From Octopus vulgaris (lineage: Eukaryota), in the NCBI GenBank assembly GCA_951406725.2, contig OX597822.1, forward strand, positions 59,458,001-59,522,000: a stretch of DNA of 64,000 nt. The letters are read 5' to 3'. Under the pieces are notes generated by a model, which searched no databases, had not been told where the DNA came from, and saw nothing but the letters and a program-made list of their open reading frames with translations. Shown here piece after piece: positions 8,791 through 63,742 of the stretch (positions are counted from its first letter, which is position 1; each line of letters opens with the position of its first letter). Made by a program: the position numbers and the translations under genes.

Positions 8791-8862
8791 AGTATTCAGA
8801 TGAGCCCTAGTGTCAGGGACGAAGAAAATGCTAGAGCAGGAAACGGATGTGCGTATAAGACT
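8791..8862 (+). ncRNA. Degenerate hammerhead-like motif
   Basis: CAGATGA (U4 mutated), stem II GCCCTAG/CTAGAGC, GAAA, stem III ACG..CGT, site GTA, imperfect stem I. Confidence 0.4.
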
Positions 8863-9360
8863 AGCCAAAAAGAAAGGACAGGAGACGGGAAATGTAGATG
8901 ATAATATTACAGTAAGCAGTAGTATTTTTGCGATGAATATAAAACAAAACGGAACAACACTGAGCTAGAGTGCAAAGTGAATAAGAAGGAAAACATGATA
9001 AGGAAGTCATTTGGAAAATAACAGAGGAGAGAAGGATAAATGTACCTGCTATATATATATATATATATATGTACGTGTGTGTGTGTATGTATACAGTAGT
9101 ACCTCTTATCACGAATAAATCGTGCTTTATCTCCTGTCATTCTCATTTTCATTTAATACACCAATACCTCGTGCTTTATATATATATATATATATATATA
9201 TATATATATATATATATATACAACTTATAAACAAGGGCAAAAGAAAAAAAGTTATAATGCCAAATATGCCGAAACTAGACATATCGTCCATAACCATATA
9301 ATTCATCACTATAAGCACGCGTATCGAAGAAAGCCGACAGAAATTTCTAAAAAATTTCCG

Positions 9361-9424
9361 TTACTATCATATCGGACCCGATTTCAGAGTTAATTCATAA
9401 GAACCTTCTCTTCGTCAGTAGTAA
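9361..9424 (-). ncRNA. Type I hammerhead ribozyme motif
   Basis: Minus strand: TTACTA CTGACGA AGAG-18nt-CTCT GAAA TCGG GT CCGA TA tga TAGTAA. Core, stem II and stem III are intact; stem I is offset by 3 nt. Confidence 0.6.
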
Positions 9425-9783
9425 ATGCGGCAAAGAAATAAATGAAATACCTACTTATACCCATGGAAGAAGCAAACACTAAGTCATGAGCACAATTAAG
9501 TACCCCAAATATATCCAAAATATATATTTATAAAGCACGAGATTTATTCAGAGTTGTTCGAAAACCAAGGTACAACTATATATATATAGTAGTACCTTGG
9601 GCAAGTGTCTTCTACTATAACCTCGGGCCGACCAAAGCCTTGTGAGTGGATTTGGTAGACGGAAACTGAAAGAAGCCCGTCGTATATATGTATATATATA
9701 TATATATATATATATTTTTTCTTTTTGCTTGTTTCAGCTCAGAGCTGCGGCCGTGCTGATGCACCGCCGTTCATATATATATA

Positions 9784-11077
9784 CGAGGGACGTTCAATAA
9801 GTAATGCCCCTGACCCACTTGCAGTTGTTTGATCTAGCTGAAATTTTGCATGTGCAATTATTTATATCTCTATAGGTTAAGTGGCAAATTACAGCTCTGA
9901 ACTAATTGTGATTTCTTATTTACAGGTGTTTCAACTGAGTCAAGTGTGAAATGGAGCCTGTTGAGTGTCGAGCAGTGATCCGGTTTTTGTATTTTAAAGG
10001 ACGCACACCACGGGAGACTTTTGATGAAATGAAAGTAACTTATGGTGATGATGTCCCATCATATGACCTTGTAAAACGCTGGCATCGTGAATTCAAACAT
10101 GGTCGGAACTCCGTGGAAACAGCTCCCAGATCTGGTCGCCCCACTTCTGCCAGTCATGAGGCATCTATCCGTCAAGTTGAGGCTGCCATTTTGGAAGATC
10201 GACGCATAACAATTCGCCAAATAACCCATCAGGTCACGATTAGTACCGGGTCTGTGGAAACTATATCATTCATGCCCATTTACATATGCAAAAGGTGTCT
10301 GCCAGATGGATTCCCAGGTTGCTCACACCTTTCCAGAAGCAAGAACACGTCGAGTGCTCGAGGATGAATTTGGAGATGTGCCAAAAAGATGAGTCAAAAT
10401 TTTTCAAAAGACTGATTACACAGGATGAAACCTGGGTCCATCACTATGATCCAGAGACCAAAGCCCAGTCAATGCAGTGGAAGCACGGTGACTCACCTCC
10501 TCCAAAGAAGGCAAGGGTGCAGCCCTCCGCTGGCAAGTTCATGCTCACAGTCTTCTGGGACCAGGACGGAGTAGTGATGACAGATTTCCTGGCAAAGGGT
10601 ACCACAATTACAGGAGCCTATTATGCTTCACTTTTGAGGAAATTAAGAGAAGCTATCAAAATCAAGAGGCGGGGCAAGATCAGCAAAGACATCTTCCTCC
10701 TGCGGGACAACGCTCCGGTCCACAACTCGCGTGTCGCCAGATCAGAAGCACAGGCATGCGGCTATGAACTCGTCCCCCATCCCCCTACTCTCCTGACCTT
10801 GCACCCTCTGATTTTCACCTCTTCACAGTCATGAAGTTGTTTTTGAAAGGGAAGCGTTTCCCAGATGATGCAGCCTTGATTTCTGAAGTCACGTCGTGGT
10901 TGGAGGACCAAGCTGGGGTCTTCTAAAAAAAAATTTCCCAAAGCTGCATCAAACGATGGGAGAAATGCGTAACTCTTGGTGGTTCCTATGTAGAAAAAGA
11001 TTAATAACTGTGCCAAGTTTCGTTGCTCTTTTGCTATGGGAAGTGGGTCAGGGGCATTACTTATTAAACGCCCCTCG
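9784..11077 (+). mobile_element. Full-length mariner (DD34D, irritans-like), 1294 bp, 37-bp TIRs, TA flanks
   Basis: TIRs at 9784-9820 and 11041-11077 are near-perfect. The transposase shows WIPRLLT, ITQDETW, RDNAPVH and HPPYSPDLAPSDFHLF. Confidence 0.95.
9951..11005 (+). pseudogene. mariner transposase with at least two frameshifts and an in-frame stop
   Basis: ORFs 9951-10367 and 10286-10834 overlap in different frames. One C is lost in the PPYSPDL codons, and there is a TAA at about 10924. Confidence 0.9.
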
Positions 11078-11559
11078 TATATATATATATATGTGTGTGT
11101 GTGTGTGTGTGTGTGTGTGTGTGTGTGTGTGTGCGTGTGTCTGTGTTTGTCCCCCAGCACGGTTGACAACCGATGCTGCTGTGTTTGCGTCACCATAACT
11201 TAGCGGTTCGGCAAAAGGGACCGATAGAATAAGTACTAGGCTTCCAAAGAATAAGTCCTGGGGTCGATTTGCTCGACTAAAGGCGGTGCTCCAGCATGGC
11301 CGCAGTCAAATGACTGAAACAAGTATTATCAAATATTAGTAAAAATTTATAAAAATTAGTAAAAATTGTAGTAAAAACAGTCCATCTTTTGTCTGGTGAT
11401 ATATATATATATGTATATGTAAGCGCGTGTCTGTGTTATGTGTGTGTGTAAACATATACACACACACATATACATTTACATATCTATATATAAATCTATC
11501 TATCTATCTATCTATCTATCTATCTATCTATCTATCTATCTATCTATCAATCTTGCTCT

Positions 11560-61680: not shown

Positions 61681-62124
61681 GACATTCTCAAATAGGGAAG
61701 AAAACAATTAGGCAAAAATAACAATTCAATACACACACACACATTTATCTTTTTCGCCTGGAAGTGTTGTACACTAACAAATCAACTCAAGTATTTACTT
61801 CAGTCCGGAACTTATTCTATCGACTTCTAGTGCCGAACGACAAGGTTATGGGGACGTAAACAAATTAACACTGGCTGTCTTGCTGTGGTGGTGATCAAAC
61901 ACAGACACAAAGCACATATACATCGATACACTGACACACACTTATAAACACACTTATATACAGTTTCCCCATATCAAATTTATTCACAAACCATTAATAG
62001 GTCAGTGGCTATAGTAGAAATACATGTCAAGTTGTTGCACATTGTGATTGAACCCGAAATCTCGTGGTTGCCGAGCGAGCTTCTTGACAACACAGCCATG
62101 CTTACATCTATATATAATGTAATA

Positions 62125-62375
62125 CAGTCATCTCTCGCCGTACCGCGATTCACCTGTCGCGGTTCCCCTATCACGGTTCACCTATCGCGGTTCACCTATC
62201 GCAGTTTATCATTTAAGCTTACGTCGATTCCTCCGTGGTGTTGTCTTGCATTTATGATAAAATAAATATATACAAATTATAAAAAATACAGTACAGTACT
62301 GTTTCTATCACGCGGATTTTCACCTATCGCAGAGGGATTTGGAACGTAACACCCGCGATAGTGAATGGATTACTG
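62125..62375. mobile_element. Tigger/pogo-like MITE
   Basis: TA-CAGTCATCTCTCG.. and ..GGATTACTG-TA termini; internal repeated TTCACCTATCGCGG. Confidence 0.75.
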
Positions 62376-62394
62376 TATATACAATATATAAATA

Positions 62395-62610
62395 AGGCAG
62401 TGAGCAGGCTGAACTATTAGCGCAGAGCAAAAAAATTCTTAGCGGCATTTCGTCCGTCTTGACGTTCTGCGGTCAAATTCCGCCGAGATTGACTTTGCCT
62501 TTCATACTTTTGGCATCATATAAAATAAGTACCAGCTGAGTAATGCGGTCGATGTAATCGAGTTTTCCTCACTCCAAAACTTGCTGGTCTTGTGCCAAAA
62601 TTAGAAATAA
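62395..62610 (+). mobile_element. SINE family D, diverged
   Basis: Colinear with 37097-37295. Confidence 0.75.
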
Positions 62611-63360
62611 GTATATGTAAGCATTTAAAAAAATTTCGGTAACAAAGGCTGGATACATCGGTTAAGTGACTATGTACTTGGTTAGATATTCACTGATTTA
62701 TACCAACCCGATCTAGAATTCAATATAAATTGATTTCGATATGATGCTAAGAATATTTCTGTGTGAAGAACTTAAATATTCCTTGTAGTATAGTACAAAC
62801 GTAGCAGTGCCCAATGTCAACTTGCCCGATTTATTTCCACCAATTCCTGCGTCACGTTAGTAGAACATTTTTATAAATTGACAGCGTTTTTGCGTCGAGA
62901 TTTCCCACAATTACAGCATAGAAATTTCTTGAATAAAATTCTAAACAATCTCTTTCACGAAACAAGGTTATTCCCAGCTGAGACGTGGGCCCGAATAAGA
63001 GATGAGTGTAAGCCGTGCATTGTTGATTTTTGCGTCTCAATTGTTGATTTGAGACTTGCATGTGTGTGTGTGTGTGTGTGTGTGTCTGTAGAACAAAGAG
63101 CTTTTCTTAATACGCATTGTACTGTTGTTTAATTGTCTCTGAGAATAAAAGGCATATGTGTTTGGAGAGGTCTTCTACATACACGATAATTCAACGAGTT
63201 GATCGAACAATTTAAGCTCTAATCATGTAAACTTAAATATCTCCATGTTAGCTACAATTAAGGCAAATTGTTGATTTGAAACTTTGGAATATTTTTCTTT
63301 TTCTAGTATTTAAGTATTTGTAATTTATATATATATATATATATATATATATATATATAT

Positions 63361-63742
63361 ATAAAATATTATTAGAGACAAAACCACTATTTTGCAAAAC
63401 AAACAAGGAAAGACTTAATCAATACATAAAATTTTAATAAATAGTCAAAAAAACCGCCACTACAATTGTTTCTTGTCTTGATCGACAATCTTCAGGTGGA
63501 CTTCCAATAAGTCAGTTTCAAATTATGACTTATTGGAAGACAAGAAACAATTGTAGTGGCGGTTTTTTTGACTATTTATTAAAATTTTATGTATTGATTA
63601 AGTCTTTCCTTGTTTGTTTTGCAAAATAGTGGTTTTGTCTCTAATAATATTTTATAATATTTTACTATAAAATTGGATTTAATCCTAAATCTGATTTTTT
63701 CCCTGTAAATTTGGATTTATTCCCTAATATTTATTATTATTA
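63361..63742. mobile_element. Fold-back element (near-perfect arms of about 118 bp) with a hammerhead and an ~85-bp tail in (TA)n
   Basis: 63361-63478 mirrors 63538-63656; inner 14-bp inverted repeat at 63501-63539. Confidence 0.88.
63457..63499 (-). ncRNA. Minimal type I hammerhead with the full consensus core
   Basis: CCAC CTGAAGA TTGTC GATCAA GACAA GAAA CAATTG TA GTGG. Confidence 0.85.

Follow-up and report, generated by a model that had tools for sequence, protein, structure and literature searches.

Penelope-like elements (PLEs) form the sister group to telomerase. Three of their features, namely the retained introns, the inverted repeats and the function of the hammerhead ribozyme, have been named as open questions (PMC8557442), and the picture of PLE hammerheads associated with TA repeats has been published previously (PMC4209133, PMC8557442). 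The published hammerheads resemble those described below, from a 64,000-nt stretch of the Octopus vulgaris genome (the window), in their core, the extra base before stem II, the short stem I and the palindromic stem III. In both cases a genome contains many families, most motifs are single ones in truncated PLEs, and pairs on opposite strands lie 100-700 bp from each other. About 2,000-9,000 motifs per genome were reported with the authors' own descriptors; our rough extrapolations for the octopus, made with different descriptors, are 39,000 (strict, from only 9 matches) and 69,000 (relaxed, 95% range 37,000-116,000, from only 16 matches). Spliced copies are not described in the available parts of that work.

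EN+ PLEs such as Neptune and Penelope/Poseidon form partial tandems with an inverted, 5'-truncated copy, carry a tail at one end, use (TA)n targets and have a 5' UTR intron near the start (PMC8557442, PMC3846280), and the octopus copies are alike in these respects. The octopus tails are 31-141 nt compared to 30-40 nt in Neptune/Penelope/Poseidon, and the octopus adds a counted rule that pairs a long end with a short one. Whereas those papers stress intron retention, processed copies without the intron are present in the octopus alongside copies that retain it. The Anolis Poseidon protein PAc has been studied in vitro on a similarly AT-rich target, where two internal RT starts define the tail, both strands are nicked and extended, and the hammerhead is dispensable (PMC11167929). 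The available text reports no start-site difference between the strands and does not treat fold-backs, splicing or short run-off copies. In Drosophila virilis Penelope, the order of start site, short exon, intron and hammerhead (PMC2377424, PMC4209133) is that of the octopus family called F63 below. The promoter likewise has an initiator, a short first exon and an intron ending at stem I, and both spliced and unspliced RNAs are made (PMC2377424). The intron is 75 bp there and about 2,350 bp in F63, and the available parts of that paper are silent on spliced copies in the genome.

Non-LTR retrozymes are non-coding, PLE-derived type I units (PMC7229834, 10.64898/2026.07.22.740005), which is also true of the F9 family and the array at locus L168. 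Retrozymes, however, are defined by tandems of at least two hammerheads plus circular RNA, whereas the window copies are monomers or inverted pairs. No head-to-tail tandem with two or more hammerheads was found among the window copies or 30 F9 loci, and the only one is the L168 array. TRIMp3 Helenus/Cassandra elements (PMC10886601) and tRNA-derived SINEs resemble the F48 family in having A and B boxes inside a terminal repeat. The F48 boxes, in contrast, belong to the 3' UTR of a PLE with coding sequence, and the available text of PMC10886601 does not mention Penelope. In the open-access main texts searched, we came across no account of PLE copies spliced in the genome, of twin priming in PLEs or of a tRNA head in a pLTR. 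The new part here is a single family whose mirror-image short copies (minis) have the intron cleanly removed and stop at the likely transcription start. The copies in the window are as follows.

9221..9530, minus strand: F9 copy, likely non-autonomous, of a 481-nt non-coding unit; short end 9221
9418, minus strand: F9 hammerhead with a longer stem III; predicted cut after 9370
45538..46198, plus strand: F45 fold-back, decayed PLE 3' UTR; the inverted arm has the short end and hammerhead 45652- with stem II partly deleted, the direct arm has hammerhead 45930+ (predicted cut after 45977) and a 140-nt tail
46375..46612, minus strand: F46 mini; its 5' end, 46579, is the A of the initiator-like TCAGT in long copies
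46519, minus strand: F46 hammerhead; predicted cut after 46447; short end 46375
46580-46612: short inverted tail piece of F46
46655..46945, plus strand: second F45 fold-back, internally deleted, without CUGANGA
48100..48879, plus strand: F48 copy, Penelope/Poseidon-like, not TA-bounded
48100-48195: F48 inverted arm with the long end
48189-48647: F48 GIY-YIG C-terminus, split by a SINE at 48377-48611 with a 14-nt target duplication
48684-48694 and 48727-48737: F48 tRNA-like A box and B box, then (AAT)n
48797, plus strand: F48 minimal hammerhead; predicted cut after 48832; short end 48879
54274..55647, minus strand: F54 copy, 5'-truncated autonomous PLE
55419-55027: F54 GIY-YIG C-terminus, then 3' UTR
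54410, minus strand: F54 hammerhead; predicted cut after 54337; short end 54274
55418-55647: F54 inverted arm with a 140-nt tail
57872..58357, minus strand: F58 fold-back, centred on a GTAC palindrome at 58142-58153; long end 57872, short end 58357 on the opposite arm
58086, minus strand: F58 degenerate core CUGAUGC; predicted cut after 58053
63364..63740, minus strand: F63 mini fold-back with (TA)n on both sides; partner ORF in L395/L389
63527-63509, minus strand: F63 spliced leader remnant; exon-exon joint between 63509 and 63508
63495, minus strand: F63 hammerhead CUGA; predicted cut after 63461
63364 and near 63735-63740: F63 short end, and long end of the inverted arm with its ~85-nt tail

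All seven motifs with an intact CUGANGA/GAAA core that a preliminary description had claimed are present, with CUGA starting at 9418-, 45652-, 45930+, 46519-, 48797+, 54410- and 63495-. A strict three-stem descriptor recovered four of them, whereas 60 block shuffles averaged 0.017. When stem II was dropped from the descriptor, five motifs were found in the window, and 48 of 50 shuffles held none and two held one. The two descriptors combined give exactly the seven, so that each meets a descriptor and the window far exceeds its shuffles; another, stricter scan accepted only 2. An unbiased 600 kb held 16 motifs compared to 0-3 in 6 shuffles. The motifs have the features of minimal type I hammerheads (CUGANGA/GAAA/UH core, stems I and II, palindromic stem III). 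The palindromic stem III was the commonest form in 9 of 12 multi-copy clusters, between which stems I and II are unrelated, and a paired change from ACAATTGT to ACGATCGT occurs between subfamilies. No hammerhead family appeared among the matches listed (150 of 185) in an Rfam scan of the window. Since monomer MFE folds of eight motifs were no better than those of shuffles (z +0.36 to -1.8), folding was dropped as support.

Two degenerate motifs had also been proposed. The one at 58048- belongs to a real family with intact-core members (e.g. L201) that pass the descriptor. The other, at 8791..8845 (+), was rejected as a single-copy sequence with a broken core, because the core reads CAGAUGA/GAAG and no relative was found: a genome search returned one candidate, itself, and none of the collected loci is related. 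Judged by sequence, the window motifs are a known hammerhead type at the ends of Penelope-like elements, with cleavage predicted. The expectation of numerous, TA-associated, PLE-mobilised minimal hammerheads with a palindromic stem III was borne out.

At least six sequence-unrelated families had been counted. The seven motifs do represent six families, since 45652- and 45930+ sit on opposite arms of a single insertion, but not all are unrelated, as the partner RTs of the 63457 (F63) and 54334 (F54) families are 45-48% identical. Inverted arms with a one-sided tail were confirmed in the window copies. Bounding by (TA)n holds at both ends for the copies at 46.4, 54.3, 57.9 and 63.4 kb, at one end only for those at 9.2 and 45.5 kb, and at neither for that at 48.1-48.9 kb; F48 copies elsewhere are mostly outside TA. 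Over the 600 kb, 11 of 16 motifs lay within 260 nt of (TA)4+, against a background of 21.6%, in agreement with the proposed enrichment.

The copies had been called non-coding, which is wrong for two of them, with GIY-YIG coding sequence at 55027-55419 and 48189-48647. The suggested link to PLE ORFs was found for five of seven families (F58 counted), namely F54, F63, F48, F45 and F46, as ORFs with RT and/or GIY-YIG or as remnants. In F54 and F63, a whole ORF with RT and C-terminal GIY-YIG is joined to the hammerhead-bearing end; the F54 partners are intact open frames of 899-908 aa (L031-L034 and L036). The F48 partner has the RT thumb plus EN, and those of F45 and F46 are EN remnants only, with GIY-YIG about 1.3 kb upstream for F45 (L074 and L077) and contiguous with the 3' UTR for F46 (L126). 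Pfam gave no significant match for three partner ORFs and PDB searches were blank; their identity is based on motifs read by eye, on homologues carrying PF26215 and on the Atlas. A Cys-rich linker before GIY-YIG, a mark of the Neptune/Nematis clades, is visible in the F63 partner and not in the F54 ORF. A pLTR or partial tandem with an inverted 5' copy and an optional tail was found in L032, L034 and L395. For F9 and F58, no contiguous coding partner was seen in 30 loci each, with 1.5-kb flanks, among the matches listed.

Since five of the seven families trace to PLE coding sequence, the majority of the copies are autonomous PLEs cut down to their ends and do not form a separate ribozyme pool. 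Evidence for a functional pool or for circular RNAs did not emerge. The earlier wording was "non-autonomous or extremely truncated". Truncation is the better half of it because five families have partners that are, or once were, autonomous; non-autonomy fits only the 9361 family (F9), which by its sequence is likely the one family of that appearance.

In the F48 family, a tRNA-like head lies 35 nt past the stop codon, within the 3' UTR of a PLE with coding sequence. Its A and B boxes are seen directly in the sequence, and the head may resemble tRNA-Thr. ARAGORN called none of 12 loci as a tRNA, and Rfam gave no tRNA match to the head in 301 nt. The 5' starts fall within about 6 nt of the head in 17 of 29 loci (about 13 of 24-25 independent), which a hairpin at that place explains equally as well as Pol III transcription. 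The absence of TTTT from the unit (0/13 copies) was rejected as a Pol III sign because the F48 ORF is equally T-poor (0-1 runs in 650 nt). A look-up of RNA data sets containing the F48 stretch listed none. In raw RNA-seq from a related organism, depths over F48 were equal on the two strands and rose toward the 3' end, with no pile-ups of read starts or ends. These reads were set aside as uninformative on cleavage or Pol III.

The F63 fold-back at 63.4-63.7 kb carries an exact exon-exon joint. At this place the long copies read leader, GTAAGT...TTTTAG, exon 2, which is a GT...AG intron of about 2.35 kb (2,342-2,360 nt in 11 of 13 measured long copies). The minis join exactly the donor and acceptor points with no microhomology, and in a second subfamily three arms use a GTATGT donor located 4 nt beyond the first. 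Of 66 spliced arms, from 41 distinct insertions, none extends past the A of TCACTT, and nine end on it; only insertions unconstrained by the search pattern were counted. Intron-bearing leaders with a GTAAG donor, on the other hand, continue upstream in 16 of 17 cases. Copies were taken from score-ranked searches, for F63 the best 40 of 1,151 candidates, and a spliced copy running upstream could exist among the remainder. Together with the initiator-like motif, the copy ends suggest that transcription likely starts at the A of TCACTT, and F63 has a pLTR/5' UTR spliceosomal intron next to this site. Evidence of splicing comes from this one clade. In F46, the end lies no more than 7 nt from the initiator-like A in 16 of 39 arm rows, and in seven of these it is that A. 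Some minis are likely spliced or start-site run-off products and not random truncations, which the preliminary description overlooked. An extra cap-derived G at F63 5' ends is not claimed because the junction bases are mixed and often come from the opposite arm. A pattern search for continuation from the tail into an ORF returned no ORF and recovered the intron-bearing copy L333 instead.

Each family has two fixed 3' ends, short and long. Among 137 fold-backs, 123 pair long with short, three short with short and four long with long, and seven are unclassified; 123 of 130 classifiable cases gives P of about 1e-28 against 50%. The two arms have the same haplotype in 38 of 39 fold-backs (expected 0.55), and no mixed spliced/unspliced pair occurs among 25 double-spliced minis and eight long copies. 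Snap-back copying, or gene conversion at a later time, could also make the arms identical. Of 47 spliced F63 copies, 38 have a single haplotype, and another haplotype, with six copies, has no unspliced counterpart; the skew also fits minis that propagate themselves. The 5' ends of F58 pile up at GTAC, and those of F9 at about +43 after the upstream cut.

We think it probable that the copies are hammerhead-bearing ends of EN+ PLEs, and that the shortest fold-backs were reverse-transcribed from the 5' end of spliced, uncleaved RNA. The PLE protein would nick both strands of a (TA)n target, cDNA would be primed from each target strand, using the short-end and the long-end internal start site of the same RNA, and the two cDNAs would be joined head to head via microhomology, giving inverted arms and a one-sided tail. 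Ordinary full or 5'-truncated copies, with the intron kept, would come from priming at the 3' pLTR. With priming at the equivalent sites near the front end, synthesis would reach the transcription start after 170-255 nt and run off there, and these products would be the spliced minis. Intron removal and the stop at the likely start indicate that the minis were likely copied from the front end of spliced, uncut RNA. Since the minis read straight through the cut site, their templates cannot have been cut by the hammerhead. In the making of minis it was likely a passenger, though it may cut at another stage. A wider reading, which we hold only tentatively, takes the minis as a record of the PLE reaction: dual-start priming, a 5' intron spliced and a 3' intron kept, uncut templates, and in F48 a Pol III SINE. 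An RT with two active sites would prime at both internal starts on one RNA. The intron copy in the 5' pLTR would be spliced and that in the 3' pLTR, which primes complete elements, would stay unspliced, so that intron retention in PLEs would be explained. The pLTR of one lineage would have gained a Pol III promoter and become a PLE-driven, ribozyme-bearing SINE.

The spliced minis might instead have arisen as processed copies in no more than a few events and now form a self-propagating MITE/SINE-like family with an internal promoter, served by PLE protein in trans. The dominance of one haplotype, another without an unspliced match, copies 96-100% alike and the internal promoters of PLEs (PMC2377424) are consistent with this. 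It is nevertheless rather unlikely: two donors and at least three haplotypes need several origins, two haplotypes are common to unspliced long copies, minis lack the two bases that precede the initiator A, a fold-back transcript would self-pair, and the search query favoured the dominant haplotype. A DNA-level deletion matching splice-like signals by chance has a precedent in the internal deletions of long copies L333, L361 and L372. We consider it exceedingly improbable for the F63 joint, with breakpoints exactly at GTAAGT and TTTTAG without microhomology, a second independent donor, and the loss of all sequence upstream of the initiator, which such a deletion would not bring about as well.

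The inverted arm could also result from snap-back self-priming of a single cDNA or from an antisense template (PMC3846280), which is unlikely. Junctions often fall on short palindromes (GTAC in F58; TTTCA...TGAAA in F63), and haplotype and splice state are common to both arms, as snap-back would have it. In the window copies of F54 and F48, however, the long arm stops at the short end and the small inverted arm is tailed; a single cDNA cannot template that tail since the long arm lacks it. The F63 exon joint demands sense, spliced RNA, contrary to an antisense template. The preliminary description had favoured a large, diverse ribozyme pool; in one form of this view, the copies are active, ribozyme-bearing, non-autonomous retrozymes spreading via cleaved circular RNAs. 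PLE-derived retrozymes are published (10.64898/2026.07.22.740005; PMC7229834), at L168 the hammerhead ends of F48 form a tandem of six 188-bp units, and the 481-nt non-coding F9 unit has a longer stem III and is preceded by part of an upstream unit in 10 of 30 copies. This view is still very unlikely given the coding partners of five of seven families. Tandems with two hammerheads on one strand are absent from the window copies, and the end lists contain no 5'-end pile-up at the predicted cut site. The 30 F9 copies all stop short of the upstream hammerhead (the furthest at -440 of 481), although rolling on a circle would let them reach it. Short reads would not reveal a monomer circle, since its closure adds no novel junction.

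With the spliced front end of the RNA as the probable template, the minis bear on PLE mobility and on why long copies retain introns. They speak against the view that an antisense template is obligatory or that these insertions require cleavage. F63 is young and combines intact ORFs, a mapped intron, an inferred start and both spliced and unspliced products, which makes three PLE questions testable. Copy ends also offer a route to map PLE start sites using DNA only. Unless cleavage is demonstrated, the hammerhead motifs of this genome, which number in the tens of thousands, are best regarded as debris of transposons.

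All seven intact hammerhead motifs claimed in the preliminary description were present in the window; the motif at 8791 had to be dropped, being without relatives and broken in its core. A strict three-stem descriptor accepted 9418-, 48797+, 54410- and 63495- (named by CUGA start and strand; shuffle mean 0.017, n=60), and a descriptor without the stem II test accepted 45652-, 45930+, 46519-, 54410- and 63495- (shuffled controls gave 0 in 48/50 and 1 in 2/50). In 60 evenly spaced 10-kb stretches of the genome, the strict descriptor found 9 motifs versus 0-2 in shuffles, and the other found 16 versus 0-3. 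Motifs were more frequent in real than in shuffled sequence, in the window and the genome sample alike. Extrapolation to the 2.8-Gb assembly gave roughly 39,000 (strict) and 69,000 motifs per genome, with wide intervals, and the hammerhead density of the window was about 4x the genome average, both sampled by the same descriptors. The suggested (TA)n enrichment was also seen, as 11 of the 16 sampled motifs lay at most 260 nt upstream of (TA)4+ versus 21.6% of random positions. Clustering of 302 motif copies, from loci retrieved by family and hence family-biased, gave 37 clusters; the commonest stem III was palindromic in 9 of the 12 multi-copy clusters, with stems I and II differing. Loci L243, L271 and L279, with their flanks, contained another common minimal-hammerhead family, which has a 4-bp stem II and is absent from the window.

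Genome searches with the elements, named by the kb position of their window copy, returned first-look candidates rather than copy numbers (F63, 1,151; F45, 2,682; F46, 1,409; F9, 3,379; F48, 3,279; F58, 27). The proposed link to PLE ORFs was found for F54, F48, F45, F46 and F63; for F9 and F58, the search with each element found no coding partner. The F54 window copy contains a GIY-YIG C-terminus, and its relatives have uninterrupted frames of 899-908 aa with RT motifs, followed by the 3' UTR and hammerhead, with terminal copies direct or inverted. On its upstream side, F48 runs into an RT thumb and GIY-YIG of the Penelope/Poseidon type, and its window copy retains its own endonuclease end, interrupted by a SINE. 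Decayed GIY-YIG ends adjoin F45 (L074/L077) and F46 (L126). For F63, L395 and L389 encode a partner of roughly 830 aa with a Cys-rich linker, and its homologues carry PF26215. One partner protein matched a predicted protein of Octopus bimaculoides locally, at 64%. F9 forms a closed, non-coding unit of 481 nt; 10/30 copies contained a portion of the unit before it, and 0/30 reached that unit's hammerhead. In the whole ORFs of L031-L036 and of L389, RT and endonuclease are separated by a long stretch rich in Asn and Ser, resembling the N-rich inserts described in rotifer PLEs (PMC3846280). The PLE nature of the hammerhead families is known biology and matches PMC4209133 and PMC8557442. The original observation was mostly right, and its interpretation was already known and only partly right.

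Other features of the window

44684-45286 and 50222-50872, plus strand: two host-gene exons with VWA domains (Pfam PF00092)
48677-48750: tRNA-like A/B-box head with (AAT)n, in the 3' UTR of a coding PLE; also in L287, L305 and relatives
920-1870, 9939-10834, 24112-24753, 42008-42391 and 56546-56920: other transposon remnants, among them Tc1/mariner-like and LINE-like frames, by eye
56546-56920: RT remnant, Pfam match
42008-42391: PLE-RT-like remnant, by eye only, no tool match

The elements at 45.5-48.9 kb are likely intronic, since two VWA-domain exons flank them. An abundant SINE ending in (TA)n (window 9590-9690 and 54100-54245, and many loci) often has PLE ends within its tails and may supply PLE landing sites. 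The F48 head follows the stop by 35 nt and precedes the hammerhead. Of the independent short F48 copies, about half begin at the head, several with a snap-back hairpin. RNA reads from a related organism covered the ORF end, head and hammerhead, and were uninformative on cleavage or Pol III transcription. At L168/L186 (G000:C30:17291400-17292600), six head-to-tail 188-bp F48 hammerhead-end units stand behind one tRNA-like head; the array is like the retrozyme type, with a PLE end as its origin. One F48 insertion had identical flanks on several chromosomes (L164, L174, L177-L179, L181) and was therefore amplified within a larger repeat.

The short fold-back copies (minis) of F63 proved to be spliced. 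A pattern extending 37 nt upstream of CUGA gave exact matches that all ended at that point (10/10), and these were left out as evidence of a 5' limit because their first base was fixed by the pattern. Searching from the tail yielded a single copy, L333, whose upstream sequence differed and ended in TTTTAG; from it, a set of young long copies, 96-99% alike, was reached. In these, the 23-nt leader of the minis is found upstream and is followed by an intron of about 2.35 kb, which opens with GTAAGT and closes with TTTTAG, 9 nt ahead of stem I. The GTAAGT and TTTTAG points are joined exactly in the window copy and other minis. The intron contains a duplicate of the leader, in which GAAA is followed by GTATGT, and three arms (inverted halves) of a diverged subfamily have their joint at the GTATGT donor position.

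L360, positions 848 and 2057: F63 promoter and leader duplicated within the intron, 1.2-kb period, other donor in the inner copy

The 5' limit was counted on 41 distinct F63 insertions unconstrained by the pattern, excluding 5 duplicate loci and the 10-copy set. In 66 spliced arms, the match to genomic upstream sequence covered no more than 13 nt ahead of the anchor, up to the A of TCACTT, which was the exact 5' end in 9/66 and was passed by 0/66. Intron-bearing leaders continued upstream in 16/17 (GTAAG) and 32/34 (GAAAG) cases. This A is a putative transcription start, and the minis would be run-off cDNAs made from a spliced RNA. Their templates were uncleaved, as the minis span the predicted cut. 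The F63 copies were score-ranked samples, with splicing seen in one clade. The haplotype skew among spliced copies would also allow the minis to be self-propagating. Similar 5' pile-ups occurred in F46, at the A of TCAGT (exact in 7/39 arm rows and within 7 nt in 16/39, one place being entered twice), and in F48, at the start of the tRNA-like head (17/29 loci). In a single case, at L343, an F63 arm begins within 1-2 nt of the predicted cut. Five F63-related fold-backs (L324, L330, L339, L344, L350) have the same tail without a hammerhead and start at AT-rich palindromes located some 19 nt downstream of the cut; either cleaved RNA or an alternative 5' end could have given rise to them.

Every family has two fixed 3' ends, long and short, spaced 31-141 nt. 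Among 137 head-to-head pairs, 123 were long+short, 3 short+short, 4 long+long and 7 unclassifiable, and the longer upstream extent was found on either arm. Both F63 arms shared a haplotype in 38/39 insertions, and none of 25 double-spliced minis or 8 long copies had a mixed splice state. Snap-back of one cDNA cannot account for the tail on the small arm where the main arm has none. PMC11167929 demonstrates two RT start sites in vitro. Both nicked target strands would prime at the two start sites, on one RNA, and we infer that such priming accounts for all fold-back features.

No spliced F63 arm came from the 3' pLTR, the PLE terminal repeat (0/66), and all long copies examined kept the intron, among them the partial tandem L395 in its truncated 5' pLTR. 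On the simplest reading, complete elements would be primed from unspliced sequence, and the spliced 5' end would give only dead-end minis. The 3' intron may stay unspliced through its position, a nuclear pre-mRNA template, or a circle made by hammerhead cleavage and ligation. An incomplete literature search found neither spliced run-off PLE copies nor strict end pairing in print. To known PLE biology these families add the class of spliced run-off copies and a strict pairing of ends.
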